From an uncultured Candidatus Saccharibacteria bacterium (GTDB taxonomy: Bacteria; Patescibacteriota; Minisyncoccia; Portnoybacterales; UBA2143), in NCBI GenBank assembly GCA_964413015.1, contig CAYPQZ010000008.1:111626-175625 (forward strand): a stretch of DNA of 64,000 nucleotides, read 5' to 3'. The number at the start of each line of letters is the position of its first letter. Within the stretch, counting starts at the first letter, position 1. The position numbers and the translations under genes were made by a program. The notes under the pieces were generated by a model. It did not search any database. It saw nothing but the letters and a program-made list of their open reading frames with translations, and was not told where the DNA came from. This document shows positions 12,072 to 24,156 of the stretch, in pieces.

Positions 12072-12884
12072 ATGCAAGAATATTTAGAGAAAGCAAAACA
12101 GGAATTAAGACTAAGAAATTACAGTTTTAAAACTATGAAAGCTTATCTGATTTGCTTGAGAGAGTATTTTAACTTTCAAAAAATAGATTTAGAGAGAATA
12201 GATGAAGAGAATATAAAAGAATTTTTACTGAATAAACAAAGTAAAAATTATTCTTCGCAAACAATTAATCTTTATCTAAGTGCAATAAAATTTTTCTACT
12301 ACAAAGTATTGAAAATTCCTCAGAAGATAAATTTAAAATTCGCCAAACGAAATAAAAAACTGCCGATTGTTCTATCAAGAGAAGAAATTAAAAACGTCAT
12401 TGACGTAATCAGAAATCCAAAACATAAATTAATAATCTCTTTGGCTTACGGCGCCGGATTAAGAATTAGCGAGGTCGTCAATTTAAAAGTAAAAGATATC
12501 AATTTAGAAGAATTAACTATTTATCTTAAAAACGCCAAAGGGAAAAAAGACAGAATTACTATTTTCCCAGAGAAAATCAAAAATAATCTTCAAAACTTAA
12601 TCGCTGATAAAAATTTAAACGACTATCTTTTTGAAAGTGAACGAGGCGGAAAATTAACTGAACGGACAACTCAAAAAGTTTTTAAAAACGCGCTCCGAGG
12701 AGCCGGTATTAAAAAAGACGCTACTTTTCATTCATTAAGACACAGCTTTGCGACGCATTTATTAGAGAATGGCGTTGATGTCAGATATGTGCAAGAACTT
12801 TTAGGTCATCAAAATATCAGAACAACCCAAATTTATACTCAAGTAACAAATCCAAAACTTAAAAATATTAAAAGCCCATTATGA
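12072..12884 (+). CDS. tyrosine site-specific recombinase (XerC/XerD/integrase family)
   Basis: C-terminal HSLRHSFATHLLENGVDVRYVQELLGHQNIRTTQIYTQV with the R..H.R..Y catalytic constellation. Lies about 200 bp from tRNA-Ala. Confidence 0.8.
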   Translation: MQEYLEKAKQELRLRNYSFKTMKAYLICLREYFNFQKIDLERIDEENIKEFLLNKQSKNYSSQTINLYLSAIKFFYYKVLKIPQKINLKFAKRNKKLPIVLSREEIKNVIDVIRNPKHKLIISLAYGAGLRISEVVNLKVKDINLEELTIYLKNAKGKKDRITIFPEKIKNNLQNLIADKNLNDYLFESERGGKLTERTTQKVFKNALRGAGIKKDATFHSLRHSFATHLLENGVDVRYVQELLGHQNIRTTQIYTQVTNPKLKNIKSPL

Positions 12885-13089
12885 TAAGTAAATTACAAGG
12901 TTACTTAGATGGTTTATAAAGACGGTACAAAAGATGTTGTAAAAAGTTTCAGCGAGCGGGTAAAAATTGGAGGGGTTCAAGGGGAGGAAAATTTTTGCCC
13001 GCGAGCCGTTAGCAAAATTGCAAAGAAATTTTGCGTCAATCAATCGGCGCCAGGATTTTGCTTAAAAGAGGTTCTGACATCGTTCAATA

Positions 13090-13166
13090 TGGTGGACCGT
13101 GGGAGATTCGAACTCCCGACCTCCGCATTGCAAATGCGGCGTTCTAGCCAACTGAACTAACGGCCC
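13090..13166 (-). tRNA. tRNA-Ala (TGC)
   Basis: Acceptor GGGCCGT with G3:U70, anticodon loop UU-TGC-AA, CCA encoded. Confidence 0.85.
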
Positions 13167-13276
13167 TTCATCTGATTAGGATACAATTTTCGCAGAGCGA
13201 AAATTTTTTGTTTCAACGGAGCTATTGACTATAGTATAACAGATTTTGACTTAAGAAGCAAGGAACGCTTGACAGG

Positions 13277-13293
13277 ATACCCCTCGGGGGTAT
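13277..13293 (+). promoter_or_regulatory. CsoR-type operator palindrome inside promoter
   Basis: ATACCCCTCGGGGGTAT, a perfect 8-1-8 palindrome, lies between TTGACA (13269-13274) and TATATT (-10). Confidence 0.6.
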
Positions 13294-13304
13294 ATATTAA
13301 AAAA

Positions 13305-13553
13305 ATGAAAAACAAAAAATTAATCAGACGCCTGAATATTGTTAAGGGCCAGATTGACGGACTGGCAAGAATTATGGAAAATGAAGAGGACTGCAGCAAG
13401 GTTTCAGAACAGTTTTACGCGATTAACAGCGCCTTAAAAAAAGTAATGGAGATATATTTTAAAGAGAATTTAACTTCTTGCTTAAGGTCGGTCAATTTAA
13501 AGAAGAAAAGAACAATTGACTTCTTGTTAAAAGAAATAATTAAAAATAAATAA
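13305..13553 (+). CDS. CsoR/RcnR-family (DUF156) metal/thiol-sensing transcriptional repressor
   Basis: LIRRLNIVKGQIDGLARIMENEEDCSKV...AINSALKKV is typical of the family. The sensing positions read x-C-L-C (His replaced by Leu). Confidence 0.7.
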   Translation: MKNKKLIRRLNIVKGQIDGLARIMENEEDCSKVSEQFYAINSALKKVMEIYFKENLTSCLRSVNLKKKRTIDFLLKEIIKNK

Positions 13554-13557
13554 ATCA

Positions 13558-14268
13558 ATGCTAGAATTAACCGATGAAAATTTTGAAGAAGCCATAAAAA
13601 AAGCGGACAAGCCGCTTTTAGTCGACTTTTGGGCTACCTGGTGCAGCCCTTGCCTGATTCTTTCACCGATTCTGGAGAAAATAGCCCAGGATTACAAATC
13701 AAAAATAGAAATAGCGAAAGTTAATGTTGATTCCGCCCCGACGGTCTCGCAGAAATTTGAAATACAGAATATCCCAACTGTGATTCTTTTTAACCAAACC
13801 GAACCGGTTGACGGTTTTGTCGGTGTCCGGCCGGAATCGCTGATTAAGGAATGGCTGGATAAAATTTTAGAAACGGTCGGTCAAGAGCAAGAACTAAAAA
13901 ACGGTGTGGAAACAGAGGAAAACAAAGAAGGAAGAAAGGAGGATCAGGTAAAATCCAAAAAGATGGAATCAAAAAAGGGAAAAAGCGAACCACAAGAAGA
14001 CGACGAGAGAAAAATCAGTCGGACAATCAAGTGGTATGAGGAATACGCTCAAAAGAATGGTTTAAAGCTGAATTCGGATGAGGAAATGGTCCGCGGCTTA
14101 ATTAAGGGGCTTTTAAAAAATGAAGACAAGCACGGAGCAAGATATTGCCCTTGCCGGAGAATTGCCGGAGACATTGAGGAAGACCGGCCCAAAATTTGTC
14201 CCTGTCAATGGCATCGGGAAGAAATTAAAAAAGATGGCCGCTGTTTTTGCGGACTTTTTGTAAAATGA
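13558..14268 (+). CDS. thioredoxin fused to a ferredoxin:thioredoxin-reductase catalytic-subunit-like domain
   Basis: N-terminal WCSPC thioredoxin, Lys/Glu-rich linker, C-terminal CPCRR...CPCQWHRE...GRCFCGLF (FTR beta CPC/CHC signature). Confidence 0.65.
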   Translation: MLELTDENFEEAIKKADKPLLVDFWATWCSPCLILSPILEKIAQDYKSKIEIAKVNVDSAPTVSQKFEIQNIPTVILFNQTEPVDGFVGVRPESLIKEWLDKILETVGQEQELKNGVETEENKEGRKEDQVKSKKMESKKGKSEPQEDDERKISRTIKWYEEYAQKNGLKLNSDEEMVRGLIKGLLKNEDKHGARYCPCRRIAGDIEEDRPKICPCQWHREEIKKDGRCFCGLFVK

Positions 14269-14774
14269 ATTTAATTTTTTCTTTTATCGTATCTTTAGTT
14301 TTTTATCTAGCATTGACTTTTGGCTCGGGGAGTATCTTATATTGGAGCAGAGAAGAGATTGTCTTAGGGGTCATTTTATCTGCTTTAACCGGAATAATAG
14401 CCCAGCGAATTTTTAAACCGCTCAAAATCGGGATAAGCCCGAAACTGTTAAATCCTTTAAGGTGGGTTTTATTTTTAGTATATCTGTTCGTCCCTTTCTT
14501 AATTAGCGTTGTCAAAGCCAATTTAGAAGTTGCTTACCGGATTATCACCAATCGAATAAAACCGGGCATTGTTAAAATATCGCCTGACCTGAAGACTGAT
14601 TTAGGTTTAACTTTGCTGGCTAATTCCATCACTCTGACGCCCGGGACATTGTCGGTCGATTTAGACCAAGAGAAAAATCTTTACGTTCATTGCCTCTGGG
14701 TTAAAGATAAAAAGCCCGGCGCCAAGCCATTGGCTTTTAAAGCCGCCAAGTGGATTAAAATAATCACTGAATAG
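14265..14774 (+). CDS. Mrp/Mnh antiporter subunit E-like (MbhA-like)
   Basis: ANSITLTPGTLSVD...LYVHCL MnhE signature. ATGA start/stop overlap with the upstream gene. Confidence 0.65.
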   Translation: MNLIFSFIVSLVFYLALTFGSGSILYWSREEIVLGVILSALTGIIAQRIFKPLKIGISPKLLNPLRWVLFLVYLFVPFLISVVKANLEVAYRIITNRIKPGIVKISPDLKTDLGLTLLANSITLTPGTLSVDLDQEKNLYVHCLWVKDKKPGAKPLAFKAAKWIKIITE

Positions 14775-14779
14775 TTTCA

Positions 14780-15019
14780 ATGTGGCAAATAATCGCTTTA
14801 ATCATTTCTGTTTTTATTATTATCGTCTTGATGAGAATTTCCCTAGTCAGGACGATTTTTGACAAATTGGTTATTCTAGACGTGGCTAACACTTTAGTTA
14901 TCACTTTACTGATAACGTTGGCAATTGCCTGGCAAGAGTTTTTTTTAATTGACGTGGCCATTGTTTACGCTTTTCTTTCTTTTGTAGGCTTAATCTATTT
15001 TGTTAAATACGTCCGATAA
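14780..15019 (+). CDS. Mrp subunit F-like small membrane protein
   Basis: 79 aa, 3 TM helices, follows the mrpE-like gene. Confidence 0.5.
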   Translation: MWQIIALIISVFIIIVLMRISLVRTIFDKLVILDVANTLVITLLITLAIAWQEFFLIDVAIVYAFLSFVGLIYFVKYVR

Positions 15020-15027
15020 AAACGCCT

Positions 15028-15354
15028 ATGTTTTTATTTTATTTCTTTATTGCCGTCAGTTTGATTTTTTTCGCCTTAAGTATTTTAGGCCTGTTCCGGC
15101 TACCCGATGTTTATACCAGATTGCATTGTTCCAGCTTGGCACTGACTTTTGGTTTTGTTTTTTTTGTTCTGTCTGTGGTGACTTATTTTTCAGCTGCGGT
15201 CGAAAGCAACTTTTCAGCGATTGTCCGCGTTTTTTTAGTCGCTTTAATTGTTCTGTTAGTCGGTCCGGTTTTATCGCACGCCATCGCCAAGGCCTCATAC
15301 GAAAGCGGAGCCAAGCCGCAAAAAGCGGAGAAAGGCAAATTTAACCAATTTTAA
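15028..15354 (+). CDS. Mrp subunit G-like
   Basis: RLPDVYTRLHCSS motif typical of MnhG. Confidence 0.6.
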   Translation: MFLFYFFIAVSLIFFALSILGLFRLPDVYTRLHCSSLALTFGFVFFVLSVVTYFSAAVESNFSAIVRVFLVALIVLLVGPVLSHAIAKASYESGAKPQKAEKGKFNQF

Positions 15355-15358
15355 TCAA

Positions 15359-15613
15359 ATGGTTTTCCCCTGGGAACAAATTATTCAGTTTTTAATTTTA
15401 AGCGCTATGGTTTTGTCGGCCTTTTTAGCGCTGAAAAGCAGAAATCTGTTCGCTTCAATCGCTTATTTGGCGGCGATGAGCTTAATGCTGGCCGCGGAAT
15501 TTTATTTACTGCGGGCGCCGGATGTGGCTATGGCCGAAGCGGCCGTAGGAGCGGGTTTGTCTTCGGCTATCTATCTGGCGGCTGTTTACCGCCTTAAACA
15601 GCTTAAAAAATAA
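15359..15613 (+). CDS. DUF4040/MbhD-like membrane subunit
   Basis: 84 aa hydrophobic; position and size as for MbhD. Confidence 0.4.
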   Translation: MVFPWEQIIQFLILSAMVLSAFLALKSRNLFASIAYLAAMSLMLAAEFYLLRAPDVAMAEAAVGAGLSSAIYLAAVYRLKQLKK

Positions 15614-15617
15614 TCTT

Positions 15618-15920
15618 ATGTTTGAGAAAAGCAGAAAATATAATTTTCAGAAAACCAAAATAACTGCTTTGGTGATTTTATTTATTTTTCTGCTCTTCAT
15701 TTTGTGGTCTCTTCATCCTTGCGGGCAGCCAAAAGCAACCAAGATGGATGACTATTTTCTCCGAAATGCTCAAGAGCAGACTGGCAGCAACAATGTTGTT
15801 ACCAGTATCATTTTTGATTATCGTGGACTAGATACTTTAGGCGAAGCGACTGTTTTATTCGCGGCTGCTATGGGAGTATTTTTTGTTTTTAATCCTAAGA
15901 AAAAATTGCCGTTAGATTGA
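15618..15920 (+). CDS. MnhB-related N-terminal domain protein (MbhE-like)
   Basis: VVTSIIFDYRGLDTLGE signature. Confidence 0.55.
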   Translation: MFEKSRKYNFQKTKITALVILFIFLLFILWSLHPCGQPKATKMDDYFLRNAQEQTGSNNVVTSIIFDYRGLDTLGEATVLFAAAMGVFFVFNPKKKLPLD

Positions 15921-15923
15921 ACT

Positions 15924-16364
15924 ATGACTAGAATAGTTAAAACAACCAGTTTAATAATTTTTGCTCCGATAGTTTTATTCGGCTTATATATTATTTCCCA
16001 TGGCCATTTGACTCCCGGTGGCGGATTCCAAGGAGGAGCGGTGGCGGCTTCAGCCATTGCGCTGGTCTGGGCGGTTTTTAGAAGCGAAACCAAATTCTCC
16101 GCCGGATTATTCTCGTTCTTGGAATCTTTAGGGTTGTTTCTCTTTATCTTGCTGGCTTTCGGCGGTCTGGCTAGGCAAACGTTTTTATCCAATTTTTTAG
16201 CCAATACGCCGGGCTTTTTCGGACAGACAATTAATTTCGGAGTTAATCCCGGCTTTTTAGCTAGTGGCGGAGTTATCCCTTTAATGAATCTGGCCATTGG
16301 CCTGGAGGTCTTTGCGGCCTTGTCGCTGGTGATTATATTAATAGCCGGGCAAAAACATGATTAG
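15924..16364 (+). CDS. MnhB-domain membrane subunit (MbhF-like)
   Basis: HGHLTPGGGFQGG signature. Confidence 0.6.
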   Translation: MTRIVKTTSLIIFAPIVLFGLYIISHGHLTPGGGFQGGAVAASAIALVWAVFRSETKFSAGLFSFLESLGLFLFILLAFGGLARQTFLSNFLANTPGFFGQTINFGVNPGFLASGGVIPLMNLAIGLEVFAALSLVIILIAGQKHD

Positions 16365-16665
16365 CTTTGTTTATCTATTCGCTTTCTTGCTCCTGGCGAT
16401 TGGAATTTCAGGAGCAGTTTTCAAGAAAAACCTGATTAAAGTGGCGATGTCCATTAATATTATTAGTAACGGAGTGAATTTATTTTTAATCAGTTTGGGG
16501 TATCGGACAGGAGGAGTGGCTCCAATTTTCACCAATGCGGTCGGTGTAGATATGGTCTTGCCGACTTCTCAAGCTTTGGTTCTAACTAGTATTGTCATTA
16601 ACCTGGCAGTAACCGCTTTTCTGGTTTCTTTGGCCGCTTTGCTTAGTCAGAAAAAGCATTCTTAA
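16357..16665 (+). CDS. MnhC/NuoK-like subunit
   Basis: 102 aa, 3 TM, NuoK-like. Confidence 0.6.
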   Translation: MISFVYLFAFLLLAIGISGAVFKKNLIKVAMSINIISNGVNLFLISLGYRTGGVAPIFTNAVGVDMVLPTSQALVLTSIVINLAVTAFLVSLAALLSQKKHS

Positions 16666-16668
16666 CTT

Positions 16669-18198
16669 ATGTCTCAAACCATCATTTTAACCATTGCTGT
16701 TTTCCTGTTGGGCGCTTTCCTTCTGCCAATTGCCGGCAAATTAGGCAGGAAAACTAAAGGGGGCTGGCTCGGCTTAATTTTAATTGCGGCTAATATTTTT
16801 GCTTTTTTCTTGTATTATGAGGTTTTAACAAAGGGGCCGATGGCTTACCGCGTGGGCGCCGAACTGCCTTTTTCGCCTTCTTCGTCGGGATTCCCTTTCA
16901 GGATTGTTTTAACCGGCGATGCTTTATCAGGTTTGTTGGCTTTTGTTTTTGTTTTAATATCTTCCTTGGCTTTGCTGTTTTCTTGGAAAAATTCAGAATT
17001 TCGGCCTAAGAGCCAAGAACATCAATATTCCTCTTCAACCGGTTTTTACGTCTGGGGGTTGTTGCTTGTCGCGGGCGCGCTTGGTTTTTTATTGGCCGGA
17101 GATTTTTTCACCTTATTTGTTTTTTATGAAATAAATTCTATCGCGGCAGCCGGCTTGATTTCCTTTTTTGGAAGGAGAAAAAATCTGAAATCAGCTTTTC
17201 ATTATTTGGCAGTTTTCTCCGTCGGTTCCTTATTTTTGCTTTTCGGAATTGGCCTTCTTTACAGCCAGTATGGTTTCTTGAATATGGCCGCGGTGGCCAA
17301 AAATCTTAATTTTTCCTTTTTGGACCAGATCGCTTTGGCTTTAATCATGGCCGCTTTGGCTTTAAAGGCAGGTTTTTTCCCCTTCTATTTTTGGAGACCC
17401 GGAACCTATCAATCTTCTCCTGCGCCGGCTCTGGTCTTGTTCATTGTTTCTTCGGCTTCAGCTGTTTACGCTCTCTTTAGAATTATTTTCAACGTTTTCG
17501 GTCCGAGTTTTAACCTGAGTTGGGTTTTAATCTTGTTTTCGGTTCTGTCAATTTTCGTCGGCGCTTTTCTGGCCTTGAAAGAAAACAATCTTAAAAGAGC
17601 CCTGGCTTATTTGGCTGTTTCAGAAGTGGGTTACATTTTTTTAGGAGTTTCTTCGGGATTGTCCAAGCCGGAAGCGGAATTCAGCCGTCAGGCGATTGAA
17701 GGAGGTCTATTCCATCTGGTCAACGACGTTTTAGATATGAGTTTGTTGTTTTTGCTGACCGGTCTTATTATTTATCTTGGTCGGAAAGAAAACGCTTTTG
17801 AGATACGCGGATTGGCTCGTCATCATCCCTGGCTGGCCGGAATTTTCCTTCTTGGCGTTCTGGCTGTGTCCGGTTTGCCGCCGTTAAATGGTTTCGCATC
17901 CAAGATGATGATTTATGAGTCAGTTTTTAAACTGAATCCCGCCTTGTCGGTTTTGGGTATTTTGGGCAGTATTCTGATTTTGGCGGTTTTGGTCAAAATC
18001 TTCGCTTCTGTCTTTCTTGGCTTTTCGCTAAATGCTTACCGAAAGACGCCTAAAACAGCCGCGGCGGTTATTCTGATTTTGGCGGTTAGCATGGTTTTAA
18101 TCGGGCTTTTCCCGAAAAAATTTATCGCTTCCTTTATTAACCCGGCCGCCGAATCCCTGATTTTGCCGTCGGTTTACGTAGGTAAAGTTATCAATTAA
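16669..18198 (+). CDS. MnhD/NuoN/NuoM-family antiporter-like subunit
   Basis: 509 aa, about 14 TM helices, proton-pumping-subunit family features. Confidence 0.7.
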   Translation: MSQTIILTIAVFLLGAFLLPIAGKLGRKTKGGWLGLILIAANIFAFFLYYEVLTKGPMAYRVGAELPFSPSSSGFPFRIVLTGDALSGLLAFVFVLISSLALLFSWKNSEFRPKSQEHQYSSSTGFYVWGLLLVAGALGFLLAGDFFTLFVFYEINSIAAAGLISFFGRRKNLKSAFHYLAVFSVGSLFLLFGIGLLYSQYGFLNMAAVAKNLNFSFLDQIALALIMAALALKAGFFPFYFWRPGTYQSSPAPALVLFIVSSASAVYALFRIIFNVFGPSFNLSWVLILFSVLSIFVGAFLALKENNLKRALAYLAVSEVGYIFLGVSSGLSKPEAEFSRQAIEGGLFHLVNDVLDMSLLFLLTGLIIYLGRKENAFEIRGLARHHPWLAGIFLLGVLAVSGLPPLNGFASKMMIYESVFKLNPALSVLGILGSILILAVLVKIFASVFLGFSLNAYRKTPKTAAAVILILAVSMVLIGLFPKKFIASFINPAAESLILPSVYVGKVIN

Positions 18199-18203
18199 AT
18201 CCT

Positions 18204-18506
18204 ATGGAATTAATTTGGCAGCCTAAAATTGCTTTGATTTCTTTTCTCCTAATATTTTCGGTCGTTTATCTTGTCTATTTGTTGGGCGAAAAAAAATATC
18301 AAAAAAAGACGTCCCAAACGACGACTTACTTTTCCGGCGGCCAGCCGCCAGAAAAAAACGAGCTGAAAAATTGCTATTGGGGATTTTTTGAAGATTTTAA
18401 AAAACTCTACAGATTTTTATTCCGGATTCAAAAAGAAAATGCCAATGACTATATTTTCATCTTTATTTTTGGCTTAGTCATATTCCTTCTAATTTTAAGT
18501 TTTTAG
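18204..18506 (+). CDS. hypothetical small membrane protein in the complex operon
   Basis: Two hydrophobic segments, no recognisable family; sits in the MbhI position. Confidence 0.35.
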   Translation: MELIWQPKIALISFLLIFSVVYLVYLLGEKKYQKKTSQTTTYFSGGQPPEKNELKNCYWGFFEDFKKLYRFLFRIQKENANDYIFIFIFGLVIFLLILSF

Positions 18507-18510
18507 AATT

Positions 18511-19494
18511 ATGACTGGATTAACCTTACAATTAACGATGATGGTGGTCTTAATTTTCGGTAGCGTCTTTTTAGGTCTGCTTTTGAAAGGGATTGACCGA
18601 ATTTTGTCGGCCCGAATGCAAAAAAGGGTCGGACCGCCTCTGCTTCAGCCATTTTATGATTTCAGAAAATTGATGGTTAAAGAAAGCATTGTGCCGAAAT
18701 ACGCCTCTAAGTGGATTTTCAGTTTGGCGCCTCTAGTTTCTTTAACGGTTTCTATTTTGATTTTGTTTTATCTTCCCATAGCCGGCGTTTCCGTTTTAAG
18801 CGGGGCCGGAGACCTGATTTTAATCATCTATCTCTTCATTTTCCCGGGTCTATGTTTGGCTTTGGGAGCTTTTGCTTCTAACTCGCCTTACGCCAATCTT
18901 GGCGGCCAGAGGTCAATTATTAATATGTTGGGGTACGAATTTCCTCTGGCTATTGTCTGTCTGGCCCCGGCTTGGATGCTTTACCAGAATGGTTTTTCAG
19001 CGCCTTTTTCTTTGACCGAAATTTACTCTGCTAATATCTGGAGCTTAGCCGGGCCGCTTGGAACAATCGGGCTTTTACTGGAGACGGTGGTTATCTTCAT
19101 TATCGTTTCTGCCGAAATTGCTAAAAGGCCTTTTGATCTTGGCGCGGCCGATTCAGAAATTGCCGGCGGTGTCTTATCAGAATATTCCGGCCGGAATTTA
19201 GCGATGTTTTATCTGGCTGAAGCGGTTAAAATAGTTGCAGTCGCCGCTTTATTCGTTTCTCTTTTCTTCCCATGGAGCGTTGTTGATTTATTCGGTTCAA
19301 ATCTACCTTTGCACGGTGCCGTTGCCTGGGCAGTTAACATCGGCTTCTATCTTCTGAAAATATTCCTGCTGGTTTTCATCGGTTTGACTTTAATCCGAAC
19401 CGCCGCTTCAAGGTTCAAAATTAGCCGTTTAACTAGAACATACTGGGGCTACATGGCTTTGTTGGCTGCTTTTGGATTTTTATTAATTTTATGA
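18511..19494 (+). CDS. NuoH/HycD/MbhM-like membrane subunit
   Basis: N-terminal R.GP...QP..D..KL..KE motif, 8 TM helices. Confidence 0.75.
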   Translation: MTGLTLQLTMMVVLIFGSVFLGLLLKGIDRILSARMQKRVGPPLLQPFYDFRKLMVKESIVPKYASKWIFSLAPLVSLTVSILILFYLPIAGVSVLSGAGDLILIIYLFIFPGLCLALGAFASNSPYANLGGQRSIINMLGYEFPLAIVCLAPAWMLYQNGFSAPFSLTEIYSANIWSLAGPLGTIGLLLETVVIFIIVSAEIAKRPFDLGAADSEIAGGVLSEYSGRNLAMFYLAEAVKIVAVAALFVSLFFPWSVVDLFGSNLPLHGAVAWAVNIGFYLLKIFLLVFIGLTLIRTAASRFKISRLTRTYWGYMALLAAFGFLLIL

Positions 19495-19922
19495 AGAATA
19501 GTCGAGAGAATAAAAAACTAAGAAAGATAACCCGCTCTATCTGGGTTTTTAACTGGTTTAATTCATGCGGTTTTATGGAAGTTTTGCCGATTGTGGGCAG
19601 TCGCTGGGATATGGAGCGGTTTGGCTTAATCCCGGTTGCTAGCCCGAGACAGGCCGATTGTTTGATTATTGCCGGCTATCAGACAATAAAATCAATCAAG
19701 AGGGCCAAAGTGATTTACGAACAAATGCCTGCTCCTAAACTGGTTATTGCCTTGGGTTCCTGTCCGGTGACTGGCGGAATGTATTGGGACTCCTATAATA
19801 CGATAAAGAAATTAGGGGATTATTTGCCGGTTGACTTATATATTCCCGGCTGTCCGCCGAGACCGGAGGCGATTTTTGACGGAATCTACAAATTAATTCA
19901 AAAAACGAAAGCAAAAAGATGA
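19491..19922 (+). CDS. NuoB/hydrogenase small-subunit-like (MbhJ-like), one cluster Cys missing
   Basis: GSCPVTGG and IPGCPPRP motifs present. The first motif reads SCGF where NuoB has CC, leaving only 3 of 4 Cys. Confidence 0.7.
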   Translation: MKNSRENKKLRKITRSIWVFNWFNSCGFMEVLPIVGSRWDMERFGLIPVASPRQADCLIIAGYQTIKSIKRAKVIYEQMPAPKLVIALGSCPVTGGMYWDSYNTIKKLGDYLPVDLYIPGCPPRPEAIFDGIYKLIQKTKAKR

Positions 19923-20404
19923 AAAATTTAATTTCTCAAATCCAGTCCAATTTTAAGGCCGACATTCTAAAAAAAGAAGAAAGGCAGTTTTGGCTGAAGA
20001 TTAGCCGAAGAGAATTGCCGGCGGTTTGTCTTTTCCTGAAAAAAAACGGATTTGATTTCTTTTCTTCTTTGTCAGCGGTGGACATGCCGGCAGAAAACAC
20101 CATAGAATTGATTTATCACCTTTGGAGCGAAAAAAGAAAAGCCGGTTTAAACCTCAAGACAAAAGTTGATAGAAAAAAACCGGTCATAAAATCAATTTCA
20201 GAAATTTATTTCCCGGCGCAAATCCAAGAAAGAGAAATTTGCGAACTCTTTGGCGTAGATTTTTTGAACAATCCGAACCTATCCGGTCTTTTCCTGGAAG
20301 ATTGGCCGGGACCGCCGCCTTTTTTAAAAGATTTTGACTGGCGGTCCTATGTTAGAGAAAAATTCTACGATCAGAAAAAACAAGATGAAAAAGGATATTT
20401 CTAA
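19919..20404 (+). CDS. NuoC/30-kDa-subunit-like (MbhK-like)
   Basis: LIYHLWSEKRKAGLNLK...ERE(I)CELFG conserved core. Confidence 0.65.
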   Translation: MKNLISQIQSNFKADILKKEERQFWLKISRRELPAVCLFLKKNGFDFFSSLSAVDMPAENTIELIYHLWSEKRKAGLNLKTKVDRKKPVIKSISEIYFPAQIQEREICELFGVDFLNNPNLSGLFLEDWPGPPPFLKDFDWRSYVREKFYDQKKQDEKGYF

Positions 20405-21494
20405 AGATTACCAAGAATTTTTATTCGGCCCTGCCCATCCCGGTTCGGGTAATTTTTCGATTAAGATAAAACTTGACGGCGAGAAAGTCGTCCAAGCCGA
20501 ATCAGATCCGGGATACCTGCATCGCGGTTTTGAGAAACTAATGGAATACCGGGACATTTGGCAGAACGCGGTCCTTTCAGATCGGATTTGCGTTTTTGAA
20601 CCACTGTCCTGGAATTTAATTTTCGCCGAAGCGGTGGAGAAACTTGCTGAAATTGAAGTTCCGGAAAGAGCGAAATATATCCGGGTCATTCTAACTGAAT
20701 TATCCCGGATTCAATCCCATCTAATCTGGTTTGGCTCATTTTCTCTGGCGGTCGGATTTGAAACCGGTTTTAAAATATATTTCGGCTACCGCGACTATAT
20801 CTTAGATATTTTTTCCGAGATTTGCGGCGGCCGGGTTTATCCGACTGGCTGTATCTGTCCCGGCGGAACAAGGCGGGACTTGCTTCAGGAAACCGAGAAA
20901 AAAATCCAGAGCGTCCTGGACAAAACGGAACAGGCAGTTGCTTATCTTGAAAAAGAAGACCCTGTTTTTCAGTCCAGAACCAAAGAGGTTGGAATCTTGA
21001 AAAAAGAAGATGCCATCAGATTAGGGGCAACCGGACAGGTTTTGAGGGCTTCAGGTGTTTCGTATGATGTGAGAAAAAGCAACCCTTACGAAGTATATCC
21101 GGCCGTAGATTTTGAAACGCCGATTTTAAAAGAAGGCGACGCTTATTCAAGATTTCGGTTAGGAGTTCTGGAGATAAAGGAGAGTCTGAAAATTATCAGG
21201 CAGCTGCTGGGAAAAATCCCACAAGGAAATTTTCTGAATGAAAAGATGAAAGTCAGCCAGTCGTTTATTCTGCCCAAGGGGGAAGTTTATTTAAGAACCG
21301 AGACCGCACGCGGAGAAGGGGGCATCTATCTTAAGGGCCAAGATAATGTTAATCCCGAACGGGTAAAAATTAAGAGTCCTTCTTTACCCCATTTAATTCC
21401 AATACTGGAATTCTTGCTAATTGGGGCGGAGGTAGCCGATATCCCGGTGATTTACTGGAGTTTAAACGGGTGTCCGGCCGATATGGACCGATAA
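20385..21494 (+). CDS. NuoD/[NiFe]-hydrogenase-large-subunit-like lacking NiFe-ligating cysteines (Ehr-like)
   Basis: FGPAHPGSG...DPGYLHRGFEKLMEY core. The N-terminal site reads DRICVFEP (CxxC lost) and the C-terminal site NGCPADMDR (only one Cys). Confidence 0.7.
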   Translation: MKKDISKDYQEFLFGPAHPGSGNFSIKIKLDGEKVVQAESDPGYLHRGFEKLMEYRDIWQNAVLSDRICVFEPLSWNLIFAEAVEKLAEIEVPERAKYIRVILTELSRIQSHLIWFGSFSLAVGFETGFKIYFGYRDYILDIFSEICGGRVYPTGCICPGGTRRDLLQETEKKIQSVLDKTEQAVAYLEKEDPVFQSRTKEVGILKKEDAIRLGATGQVLRASGVSYDVRKSNPYEVYPAVDFETPILKEGDAYSRFRLGVLEIKESLKIIRQLLGKIPQGNFLNEKMKVSQSFILPKGEVYLRTETARGEGGIYLKGQDNVNPERVKIKSPSLPHLIPILEFLLIGAEVADIPVIYWSLNGCPADMDR

Positions 21495-21498
21495 AAAT

Positions 21499-21879
21499 AT
21501 GAAGCTTAAAATTATCCCAAAATTAATTATTAACTTATTCAAAAGATTCTTAACCGTTAAATATCCGACAAAGTCGCTTTCGATTCCCGAGGGCTATCGT
21601 GGCATACCTAAGCTTCTCCGGCCGGAAAAATGCTTAGGTTGCGGCCGGTGCGCGAAAGCTTGTCCTAATAAAGCAATTGAAATGGTGGAGGTCAAACAAA
21701 AAGACGGCAGCATAAAAAAAGAACCCCGGATTGACCTTAACAAATGCTGTTTCTGCGGATTGTGCGAAGAAGCCTGCGCGTTTAAAGCGCTTTGCTTGAC
21801 CAAAGAGATCCCTTTAGCCGAAGAAAAAAAACCGGCCGATAATCTTTCAGCCGGTAAAGTTAAGTTGTCAGAGGATTAA
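21499..21879 (+). CDS. NuoI-like 2x[4Fe-4S] ferredoxin subunit
   Basis: CLGCGRCAKACP and CCFCGLCEEACA motifs. Confidence 0.75.
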   Translation: MKLKIIPKLIINLFKRFLTVKYPTKSLSIPEGYRGIPKLLRPEKCLGCGRCAKACPNKAIEMVEVKQKDGSIKKEPRIDLNKCCFCGLCEEACAFKALCLTKEIPLAEEKKPADNLSAGKVKLSED

Positions 21880-21910
21880 ATCTCTAATTCTCCCGCAATC
21901 AAGCGGGCCT

Positions 21911-21987
21911 TGGTGGGCAATGCAGGACTTGAACCTGCGACCTCCTGGATGTCGACCAGACGCTCTAACCAACTGAGCTAATTGCCC
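21911..21987 (-). tRNA. tRNA-Val (GAC), unusual C33
   Basis: Acceptor GGGCAAT, anticodon stem TCTGG/CCAGA, loop UC-GAC-AU, CCA encoded. Confidence 0.7.
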
Positions 21988-22086
21988 AAAATTATTCAAA
22001 ATCTTTAATTTTGTTTATAATTTTAGAGCCTGCCTTTGGCAGGCACTGATTTTTATATCCAAAACAAGTTTTGAACAAAAATCGTG

Positions 22087-22159
22087 TGGGCGTGCCAGGA
22101 TTCGAACCTGGGGCCTAGGCCTTATAAGGACCCCGCTCTAACCGCTGAGCTACACGCCC
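22087..22159 (-). tRNA. tRNA-Ile (TAT) (anticodon UAU, not CAT)
   Basis: Acceptor GGGCGTG/CACGCCC with A73, anticodon loop CU-TAT-AA, T-loop GGTTCGAATCC. Confidence 0.6.
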
Positions 22160-22273
22160 GCCTGTAACGCTTCGCGTAACGATGCAGGTGAACCCGCAAA
22201 GCTATACTGCTTATTGTCTGTATAAAAATATATTAACAAAAAACATTTGTCTAAGCAAGTCTTCTAAATAATT

Positions 22274-22300
22274 AAAAAAGGGGATATGCGCCATATCCCC
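22274..22300 (-). terminator. intrinsic terminator of ftsH
   Basis: GGGGATATGCGCCATATCCCC hairpin followed by a T-run on the minus strand. Confidence 0.7.
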
Positions 22301-22332
22301 ATGTCAATAAATTTATTTCTTTCTTACTTACA

Positions 22333-24156
22333 TTAGACCTTTTTTTTCATCAATCTTTCAAATTCTTTTCTCTCAACGGTTTCTTTTTTAATCAGCTGTT
22401 TGGCGATTAAATCCAGGCGCTTTCTTTTTTCAATTAATATTTTCTTGGCGGTTTTGTAAGCATTGTTGATCAATTTAGATATTTCTTTATCAATTTGGTT
22501 GGCAGTCTCTTCAGAATAATCCTTTTCAGCGGCGATTTCTCTGCCTAGAAAAATCATCTCTTCTTTGCCGCCAAAAGTTCTAGGCCCTAATTTTTCACTC
22601 ATCCCATATTTGGTTACTATCTGGCGGGATAATTCGGTCGCTTTCTGCAGGTCGTTGGAAGCTCCGGTGGTTAATTCTCCAAAAACTAATTTTTCGGCAA
22701 CGTGACCACCCAGAAGAATCGCCAACTCGTCTATGAATTCAGAGCGGCTATGCAAATGCCTGTCTTTTTCGGGGAACTTTATAGTATAGCCAGCTGCCGG
22801 TCCTCGGGCGATAATGGAAACCTTCTGGATTAGGTCAGCGTCAGGCATTGAGGCGGCTACCAAAGCGTGTCCAGCTTCGTGATAAGCGGTAATTTCTTTT
22901 TCTTTTTTGGATAAGATATGGCTTTTTCTTTCAGGCCCCAGCAGGACTTTCTCGATGCATTCGCGCAGTTCGTCTTGGCCGATTTTTTTCTTGTTTCTCC
23001 GGGCAGTTAGGATGGCTGCTTCATTGACTAGATTGGCCAAGTCGGCCCCAGAAAATCCGGGCGTCCTCTCAGCGATTTCTTTAAGATTAACATTCTCGTC
23101 CAAAGGCTTATTCAGTGCATGAATTTTAAGGACTCCTTTACGGTCCTCAATATCCGGTAGATTAAGAATAATTCGCCGGTCGAATCTGCCCGGTCTTAAT
23201 AGGGCTGGGTCAAGAACGTCCGGTCGGTTAGTGGCCGCCAGCAGGATTATTCCAGTATTTGGGTCAAAGCCGTCCATTTCAACCAGAATCTGGTTTAAGG
23301 TTTGTTCCCTTTCGTCATTGCCGCCGCCCAAGCCGGCTCCTCTTTGACGACCGATGGCATCCAGTTCATCTATGAAAATTAAACAGGGCGAGTGTTTTTT
23401 AGCTGTCTGGAATAAATCTCGAACCCGACTTGATCCAACTCCGACGAACATTTCAACAAATTCTGAACCGGAAACGCTGAAAAAAGGAACATTGGCTTCG
23501 GTGGCGATAGCCCGACCAAGTAAAGTTTTGCCGGTTCCCGGCGAACCGACTAACAAAACTCCTTTAGGGATTTTAGCTCCCAGGTCAACGAACTTTTTAG
23601 GATTTTTTAGAAAGTCAACTACTTCATGAAGCTCTTCCTTAGCTTCTTTGAGGCCGGCCACATCTTTAAAAGTCGCCCGGTCTTTTTTATCTTTAGGATT
23701 AATTAAACGGGCTCTTGAATGCCCAAAAGTCAAGGCCTGCATTTGGCCTCTTTTAGCTCCTCTGAACATAAACCAGAAGAAGAAGCCGATAATTAACAGA
23801 GGCAAGAGAAAGGGGAGGACAGTTCCGAGCCAAAAGGCGGCTTCGCTTTCTCCCTTTATTTCCAAATTGACAAGTTTAAGTTTTTCCGGGTCAACCCCAT
23901 AGTTTTTCAAAGATTCTGTTAATGAGGCCTCTTTTTCTTTGATGGCTATTTCTTGGTCTCCGCTTTTTAATTCAATCCCCAATTTCTCTCCTCTGATAGT
24001 AATGATTGAGACTTGCTCTTGATTTATCTGTTTAACTAACTGACTTAAAGAGATTTCTTGAGGTTTTTGTTCAGAGGCGCTGAATAAGGCAAAAAGTCCG
24101 GCAATCGTTAAGAAAGACAGGAAGACAATAAGTAGATTTTTTAGTAGAAATTTCAT
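22333..24156 (-). CDS. ftsH: ATP-dependent zinc metalloprotease FtsH
   Basis: AAA+ motifs GSPGTGKT and DEID, second region of homology, HEAGHA zinc site, N-terminal TM helices. Confidence 0.9.

Follow-up and report, generated by a model that had tools for sequence, protein, structure and literature searches.

A CstR-like dithiol regulator with a promoter-embedded operator, predicted to control a thioredoxin operon in Candidate Phyla Radiation bacteria

Introduction

Bacteria of the Candidate Phyla Radiation (CPR; Patescibacteria) have very few recognisable regulators, and no redox-stress circuit has been characterised in them. In a 64,000-nucleotide stretch from an uncultured Candidatus Saccharibacteria bacterium (contig CAYPQZ010000008.1 of assembly GCA_964413015.1; this whole stretch is ‘the window’, and coordinates given without a locus name are positions in it), a gene encoding an 82-residue protein of the CsoR/RcnR superfamily (13305–13553, plus strand) has an inverted repeat in its promoter and is followed by a thioredoxin gene and a set of genes for a membrane complex. 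The question that this locus raises is which signal the protein senses and which genes it controls in response.

The answer that we reach is that the protein is most likely a non-metal, dithiol-switch autorepressor of a thiol-reduction operon; its inducer, its oligomeric state and the chemistry of the switch are what we infer from the comparisons described below. The superfamily and the subclass to which the protein belongs were already known; the novelty is that a clade spread across the CPR has a regulon made up of thioredoxin-system genes and, in some genomes, of genes for a membrane complex resembling MBS, the sulfane reductase of Pyrococcus furiosus. In our searches, the literature contained no account of this, and nothing relevant to a CPR link of the CsoR-family, thioredoxin or MBS kind.

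Results

A CsoR-superfamily protein with the sensing residues of CstR

The protein matches PF02583 (CsoR/RcnR, DUF156) over residues 3–76 with a score of 64.9 bits (cut-off, 22.8 bits; E = 8.9e-18). An open reading frame (ORF) caller and JGI begin the gene at TTG 13269, giving 94 residues, and the preliminary description of the locus had used the same position; this TTG belongs to the −35 hexamer of the promoter, the extension that it adds is not conserved, and 97 of 120 homologues are 82 residues long and align from the same Met, so the start is ATG 13305. In an AlphaFold2 (AF2) monomer model (pLDDT 85.5), the protein forms three helices (residues 2–25, 30–61 and 65–80); when this model is compared with the PDB using Foldseek, the top 20 matches are all CsoR, CstR, FrmR or InrS proteins (TM 0.63–0.70). 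Membership of the CsoR superfamily is clear.

Ungapped alignments to Streptococcus pneumoniae CstR and Mycobacterium tuberculosis CsoR (MtCsoR) fix the register of the sensing motif, which reads x-C-N-C. Position X is Cys30, the first residue of helix alpha2 (codon 13392–13394), position Y is Asn55 (codon 13467–13469), where Cu-CsoRs have His, and position Z is Cys59 (codon 13479–13481; all three codons are on the plus strand). The corresponding residues are C36, H61 and C65 in MtCsoR and C30, N55 and C59 in S. pneumoniae CstR, that is, the same three residues with identical numbering. In an alignment of 121 sequences (the window protein and its 120 homologues), Cys30 and Cys59 are invariant (121/121 each) and Asn55 is nearly so (119/121); the two cysteines are the only ones in the window protein and the only conserved ones in the aligned set. 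The locus had been described as encoding an x-C-L-C, CstR-like site. The likeness holds, since the Cu-ligand His is missing and the site resembles the dithiol sites of the CstR sensors; the Leu does not, because position Y is Asn55 and the nearby Leu56 and Leu60 are merely neighbours of the sensing residues. The alignment that the preliminary description proposed as a check for a standard x-C-H-C site turned up none.

The pattern found here, Cys at X and Z with no His at Y, is the x-C-x-C pattern of the CstRs, and the closest solved relative is also a CstR: the best sequence match in the PDB is S. pneumoniae CstR (7MQ1; E = 9e-9, 38.6 bits), followed by MtCsoR and then by FrmR, InrS and other CsoRs. 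A profile built from 26 family members ranks the structures in the same order (46 bits for CstR and 35.6 bits for MtCsoR). An exhaustive profile search shows that the family is compact: the top ten representatives at 50% identity (131–92 bits) all have the C-N-C signature, and the next two (82 and 77 bits) have C-H-C. In the long tail of the search, no signature is more frequent than C-N-C, which accounts for 58 of the best 150.

Other positions describe how the protein may bind DNA and how its two cysteines may meet. Arg9 (119/121), Leu10 (120/121) and Gln36 (121/121) are invariant or nearly so; Gln36 is located six residues past the Cys at X, as is Q81 of Streptomyces lividans CsoR, a universally conserved Gln whose replacement by Ala abolishes operator binding. 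The N-terminus has the form M-R/K-K-N, with Arg or Lys at residue 2 in 107 of the 121 sequences and Pro in two, and in none of its positions did we find a conserved His or Cys, or a conserved Pro2. In the AF2 model, Cys30 and Cys59 are at opposite ends of helix alpha2 (30–61), so a Cys30–Cys59 pair would be expected to form only between protomers, as it does in CsoR and CstR; this placement is consistent with the interprotomer sensing sites of the superfamily, whose members are homotetramers (dimers of dimers). In S. pneumoniae CstR, N55 acts as a ‘wedge’ between the two cysteines and tunes their reactivity (PMC8643695).

An operator that fills the promoter spacer

The sequence ahead of the regulator gene (cgcTTGACAggATACCCCTCGGGGGTATATATTaaaaaaATGAAAAAC) contains a −35 hexamer, TTGACA (13269–13274, plus strand), and a −10 hexamer, TATATT (13293–13298, plus strand), separated by an 18-nucleotide spacer. 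The pair has 11 of 12 consensus matches and, in a consensus scan, is the top promoter-like site both in 12800–14400 and in 13200–22400. Between the hexamers is the operator ATACCCCTCGGGGGTAT (13277–13293, without assigned strand), which occupies the spacer and shares its last base with the first base of the −10 hexamer; its TAC-N9-GTA core is 13278–13292. The preliminary description had reported a palindrome between TTGACA and TATATT upstream of a CsoR-family gene, and this arrangement is borne out by the coordinates and by the PF02583 match; the palindrome is ‘perfect’, as it was called, only in its two 7-bp arms (ATACCCC and GGGGTAT), which flank a non-symmetric 3-bp centre (TCG).

The site agrees with the type-2 CsoR consensus ATATACCCCTNAGGGGTATAT and with the associated rule, 5′-TAC-X9-GTA-3′ (PMC3902906). 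It is also nearly identical to the operator of the Streptococcus mitis cst genes (ATATACCCTTATGGGGTATAT, compared with GATACCCCTCGGGGGTATAT here; PMC8643695). The locus thus has what is seen throughout the CsoR/RcnR superfamily, a G/C-tract pseudopalindrome with TAC/GTA dyads placed at a promoter, and the proposal that a CsoR-family repressor has a GC-rich operator in its own promoter is upheld by this type-2 site.

The −10 hexamer ends six nucleotides ahead of ATG 13305, and the intervening AAAAAA (13299–13304) contains no Shine–Dalgarno sequence, so the mRNA of the regulator is probably leaderless or nearly so. In most of the orthologous loci, the distance from promoter to ATG is 45–100 nucleotides, compared with the six nucleotides from the −10 hexamer in the window.

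Taken from the window alone, the statistics of the operator are weak to modest: the 17-mer ATACCCCTCGGGGGTAT occurs once in the 64 kb, 0.12 chance matches with no more than two mismatches are expected, and at least one such match was obtained in 12 of 100 shuffles. The case for the operator is, therefore, chiefly comparative. A genome scan provided 46 loci, nearly all of them from metagenome-assembled genomes of CPR/Patescibacteria (Parcubacteria, Wolfebacteria, Shapirobacteria, CPR3, Gracilibacteria, Peregrinibacteria and Peribacteria); 39 of these, all from CPR/Patescibacteria, are family loci. In 35 of the 39, the regulator gene is preceded by TTGACA and then by ATACCC(C)-N3-5-(G)GGGTAT, with the right end of the operator 24–25 nucleotides from the start of the −35 hexamer, that is, with the spacer filled and the operator running into the −10 hexamer. 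The palindrome of the preliminary description thus recurs in the orthologous promoters, and its absence there cannot be held against that description.

A strict pattern, TACCC-N5-GGGTA, occurs 24 times in the 620 kb of the loci, where 0.8 occurrences are expected, with a single copy in each locus. Its position in the 22 family loci with a copy is the promoter of the regulator itself; the other two matches belong to distant homologues, one upstream of copA (L039) and one just upstream of the match to the regulator (L045). Further copies of the operator were found neither in the window nor in the ~10 kb on either side of the regulator across the 46 loci.

One locus provides a natural knock-out. 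In L029 (9860–10250), the regulator gene has been reduced to a pseudogene by three TAA codons in frame (at Gln8, at the invariant Gln36 and at position 66), and the G/C tracts of the operator have turned into A/T (TTGACAAATATCTAAATTTATATATAAT); the thioredoxin and membrane-complex genes downstream are still intact. In this genome, the repressor and its operator have decayed together. A second decayed copy of the promoter is present ~120 nucleotides upstream in the same locus.

The exceptions to the operator pattern include L036 and L037, which carry ATAGGGGGTGGGGGTAT with a single G tract. The variant operator in these two loci can be written ATAGGGGG-T-GGGGGTAT; it is located ~30–60 nucleotides upstream of the regulator gene, has a long G tract between ATA and TAT and resembles the type-1, RcnR-style sites. 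As a separate observation, the metagenome locus L049 (2043–2400) encodes a thioredoxin (WCQPC), a thioredoxin reductase, a ferredoxin and MBS-like genes without a regulator gene; it has a degenerate sequence, TTGACAAAGTACTCCACAAGGTAT, and half-sites in opposite orientation (AAGGGTAT-N11-ATACCCTT) directly before the thioredoxin gene.

A thioredoxin is the conserved partner of the regulator

Four nucleotides past the stop codon of the regulator begins a gene (13558–14268, plus strand) for a thioredoxin with a WCSPC active site (PF00085, E = 7e-30) that is fused to the catalytic domain of ferredoxin:thioredoxin reductase (FTR; CPC..CPC..CFC; PF02943, E = 9e-24). We predict from this arrangement that the thioredoxin-FTR fusion is the first regulated gene. 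The fusion had been recognised in the preliminary description, and the domain matches agree. The FTR domain ends in CFC instead of CHC, the WCSPC active site is atypical, and the protein partially matches ‘FtrB family double-selenoprotein’, an NCBIfam model with a cut-off of 160 bits, at 87 bits.

Across genomes, the thioredoxin is the conserved partner of the regulator: its gene directly follows that of the regulator in ~35 of the 38 closest loci. The active sites of the thioredoxins in this position (L003–L040) are mostly non-canonical, with WCQPC in 15, WCMPC in six and WCGPC in only five. Additional genes recur in the neighbourhoods, and these encode a thioredoxin reductase (TrxR)-like flavoprotein, glutamate dehydrogenase, a small 4Fe-4S ferredoxin, a DUF59-type protein of Fe-S assembly and a membrane protein that has no Pfam hit but contains a CxxC motif of the thioredoxin type and is DsbD-like by inspection.

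A gene pair that follows the thioredoxin gene in 11 of the loci (L004, L005, L008–L010, L012, L013, L016, L023, L026 and L032) encodes an ABC-ATPase-like protein (~267 residues) and a CobW/HypB-like GTPase (~266 residues) whose C-terminal part is a PF04060 Fe-S domain; genes for a small ferredoxin and a 90-residue thioredoxin-like protein are often found after the pair.

An MBS-like complex in the distal part of the operon

In the window, the thioredoxin-FTR gene is followed by 14 co-directional genes (14265–21879, plus strand) that overlap or nearly abut up to 21879. Pfam matches assign these to an Mrp-type membrane module and a NuoH/B/C/D/I-like module in the order A-B-C-D-E-F-G-H-I-M-J-K-L-N; the products are MnhE, F and G, MbhD, MbhE, MnhB, MnhC, MnhD, a protein of 100 residues and NuoH-, NuoB-, NuoC-, NuoD- and NuoI-like proteins. 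Between 13200 and 22400, we found no better internal promoter and no convincing terminator, and the 14 genes are the probable distal part of the regulator operon, with co-transcription probably extending to 21879.

The complex had been described as Ehr-like; we replace this label on the basis of its best structural relatives and its cysteines. The NuoD-like L subunit (20334–21494) scores 283 bits against MbsL (6U8Y_L) and 164 bits against MbhL; of the four NiFe cysteines it keeps only two, the equivalents of C85 and C385 of MbsL (in RICV and NGCP), and the other two are absent. The NuoB-like J subunit (19491–19922) has its best match, an ungapped alignment, in 6U8Y_J (MbsJ) and keeps three of the cysteine ligands of the cluster (the equivalents of C28, C93 and C123), with Phe at the position equivalent to C25. 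Two NiFe cysteines in L and three proximal-cluster cysteines in J are what is expected of an MBS; the duplicated, antiporter-like H and H′ subunits of an MBS are not present, because the window has a single Proton_antipo_M gene (16669–18198). Because the catalytic subunits L and J find their best match in the P. furiosus sulfane reductase MBS, far ahead of MBH, and share its pattern of cysteines, MBS/Mbx-like is the better label. The window seems to encode, within a CPR genome, a bacterial complex of the MBS-like type.

Discussion

Proposed mechanism

By analogy with CsoR and CstR, we propose that the reduced regulator, as one tetramer or as two, occupies the TAC-N9-GTA operator; with the operator in the spacer between the −35 and −10 hexamers, binding would exclude RNA polymerase. 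Cys30 of one protomer and Cys59′ of its neighbour, with Asn55 as a wedge in the gap, would react with thiol-reactive oxidants, of which sulfane sulfur species (persulfides and polysulfides) are the likeliest; the products would be interprotomer di-, tri- or tetrasulfide links, and the DNA would be released. Release would derepress the regulator gene, the thioredoxin-FTR fusion and, in this genome, the 14-gene MBS-like, ferredoxin-dependent complex. The induced thioredoxin system would then remove the oxidant and would probably re-reduce the repressor, giving a negative feedback loop. The known CstRs lose DNA binding when they are treated with persulfide or tetrathionate (PMC8643695), and thioredoxin-like proteins are described as able to reduce protein persulfides (PMC6196236).

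The nature of the inducer

We favour, with somewhat better than even confidence, a thiol switch of the CstR type that responds preferentially to reactive sulfur. The preliminary description had suggested that the operon may respond to sulfur or redox stress and not to copper. The sulfur-specific form of the switch is favoured because of the CstR triad and the MBS-like complex. Several observations weigh against it. The regulator and S. pneumoniae CstR are only 34% identical, and the margin of the profile for CstR over Cu-CsoR is modest (46 and 36 bits). An MBS-like complex follows the regulator in only six of ~39 loci (the window, L006, L018, L024, L029 and L036, the last with the MBS-like genes directly after the regulator gene and no thioredoxin gene between them). 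Moreover, of the 80 relatives of the MnhE-like subunit from metagenomes, 76 have no detected regulator or thioredoxin upstream, some of the contigs being short on that side; the regulator is therefore not a general head of MBS-like complexes, and the link between the two is confined to the closest clade. Rhodanese, SQR, persulfide dioxygenase, CoA-persulfide reductase and TauE were not found among the recurrent neighbours (neighbours seen in single loci are partly annotated), so the recurrent neighbourhood lacks the sulfide-oxidation and sulfurtransferase genes that form the genomic signature by which CstRs have been called (PMC8643695). Finally, CstRs also react in vitro with H2O2 and with oxidised glutathione (GSSG) (PMC8643695), so the inducer cannot be told from the residues.

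The last two of these points lead to the strongest rival, in which the same protein and operator respond to general thiol oxidation (O2, H2O2 or disulfide stress) and constitute a switch for thioredoxin homeostasis whose logic would parallel that of RsrA-SigR-trxBA or Spx. Thioredoxin is the universally conserved target; the TrxR, DsbD-like and Fe-S assembly genes make up a classic disulfide-stress regulon, to which glutamate dehydrogenase could contribute as a source of NAD(P)H; sulfide-oxidation genes are not seen among the recurrent neighbours; and the dithiol sites of the CstRs are reactive with H2O2 and GSSG in vitro (PMC8643695). However, proven persulfide sensors have this same C/N/C triad, down to the numbering; both here and in five other genomes, the genes of an MBS-type complex are part of the operon (and the archaeal counterpart of that complex reduces polysulfide); and the known CstRs react much faster with sulfur-based oxidants (tetrathionate within ~1 min) than with H2O2 or GSSG. 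We regard general thiol oxidation as a possible signal, clearly behind reactive sulfur in probability.

Metal sensing, with Cu(I) or another thiophilic metal bound by Cys30, Cys59 and an O or N ligand from Asn55, is very improbable. It would be in keeping with the name of the Pfam family (‘metal-sensitive repressor’) and with the annotation of the homologues by NCBI as metal-sensitive regulators; the two representative clusters next closest to the family are C-H-C, and the operator is of the type shared by the Cu-CsoRs, including that of a control locus. However, 119 of 121 sequences have Asn in place of the His ligand, the N-terminus provides no conserved His, Cys or Pro2, and a gene for a CDF transporter is nearby in only ~7 loci, with no fixed position. 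A motif scan detected neither copA nor copZ, that is, neither DKTGT together with the CPx motif of the P-type ATPases nor MxCxxC, in the window or in the 39 family loci. In the control locus (L039 7373–10255, Peptoniphilaceae), the same scan finds copA (MTCAAC, CPC and DKTGT) followed by a C-H-C CsoR, and copZ as well; an operator of the same type (TACCCCTATGGGGTA) is located upstream of copA. Because this Cu-CsoR shares the operator type, the operator is no guide to the inducer, and the sensing residues and the neighbourhood are. With no His at Y, no copA or copZ, and a scan validated by the control, we reject a Cu(I)-sensing CsoR. We also reject the RcnR and InrS classes (H-C-H-H and H-C-H-C): there is no N-terminal His, position Y is Asn, and the 28 bits obtained with the NCBIfam RcnR model are far below its cut-off of 138.

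Still less probable is a sensor of carbon electrophiles that uses Cys30 to react with an aldehyde, as FrmR does, or with a quinone. FrmR is a close structural relative, and JGI names the homologues ‘FrmR family’. The chemistry of FrmR (P-C-H-x) needs Pro2, however, and 107 of the 121 sequences have Arg or Lys at this position; the NCBIfam FrmR model scores 31 bits, far under its cut-off of 133, and none of the NCBIfam models for RicR, FrmR and RcnR comes near its cut-off for this regulator; the second invariant cysteine, Cys59, is not needed for the FrmR mechanism; and aldehyde dehydrogenase is not among the neighbours. We do not assign the protein to FrmR, and even taken together, metal and electrophile sensing are improbable. 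That the palindrome is an incidental hairpin or the remnant of a terminator, and the promoter unregulated, is hardly credible: the 7-bp G/C arms could fold around a 3-nucleotide loop and the single-window statistics are weak, but the site is in a promoter spacer that is not transcribed, its sequence and not just its symmetry is kept in 35 of 39 loci at a set distance from the −35 hexamer, and it decays alongside the regulator gene in L029.

Comparison with known systems

The closest known system is that of the cluster-10 CstRs (S. pneumoniae SPD_0073, S. mitis and Enterococcus faecalis; 7MQ1; PMC8643695). These share with the CPR regulator the Pfam family and fold (85 residues, compared with 82 here), the same C30, N55 ‘wedge’ and C59 with no other conserved Cys or His, and an operator at the promoter of the target operon. 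They differ in their targets, which are rhodaneses, CoA-persulfide reductase, SQR and persulfide dioxygenase; those predicted here are thioredoxin, TrxR/FTR, ferredoxin and the MBS-like complex. Unlike the cluster-10 proteins, the family described here is confined to CPR/Patescibacteria, and its regulator is the first gene of the operon, predicted to be autoregulated from the same promoter.

The Cu(I) CsoRs of M. tuberculosis, Bacillus subtilis and S. lividans have in common with the CPR regulator the fold, the cysteines at X and Z, the Arg-Leu and Gln residues of DNA binding, a promoter-overlapping type-2 TAC-X9-GTA operator and autoregulation; they differ in having His at Y, where the CPR regulator has Asn, and in their copA/copZ neighbourhood, which is missing here. 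In two further systems, RsrA-SigR-trxBA of Streptomyces and Spx of Firmicutes, a thiol switch governs thioredoxin-system genes, and the product can reset the switch. The regulatory logic is like that proposed here; the protein families and their mechanisms are unrelated, an anti-sigma factor and a factor that binds RNA polymerase as opposed to a DNA-binding repressor.

In the Thermococcales, SurR exerts sulfur-responsive, thiol-switch control over MBS (mbx) and MBH (PMC12162507, PMC7684303). This system likewise pairs a thiol-switch regulator with an MBS-type, ferredoxin-dependent complex, and the L and J subunits of the window match MBS best; however, SurR, a winged-helix regulator of archaea with a CxxC motif, is not related to CsoR, and the complex of the window has one antiporter-like H instead of H and H′ and is preceded by the thioredoxin-FTR fusion.

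Significance

A promoter, an operator, an 82-residue dithiol repressor and an atypical thioredoxin constitute a small and sharply conserved unit across many CPR lineages, which offers a testable entry to the sensing of reactive sulfur or oxidants in ultra-small, mostly uncultured bacteria. The unit would extend the CstR-type sensors to a new regulon, one of thiol reduction and not of sulfide oxidation, and in some genomes would tie such a sensor to an MBS-like membrane complex.

A more ambitious interpretation is that, in a subset of the CPR, a sulfane-sulfur sensor switches on a bacterial, MBS-type, ferredoxin-driven and ion-translocating complex along with the thioredoxin-FTR fusion, and that the regulator–operator–thioredoxin unit is the main redox-stress switch of the CPR. 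We consider this doubtful. If true, it would give bacteria an equivalent of the SurR-MBS sulfur response known from archaea, and could be a respiratory or energy-converting link from ferredoxin to the reduction of polysulfide, persulfide or thioredoxin; such an energy system would then exist in organisms that are thought to lack respiration.

Genomic surroundings

Immediately upstream of the operon, the window has a gene for a tyrosine recombinase with Phage_integrase and SAM-like N-terminal domains (12072–12884) and one for tRNA-Ala(TGC) on the minus strand (13090–13166). The GC content of the operon (0.39–0.44) is no different from that of its surroundings. In total, the 64-kb window contains 18 tRNA genes.

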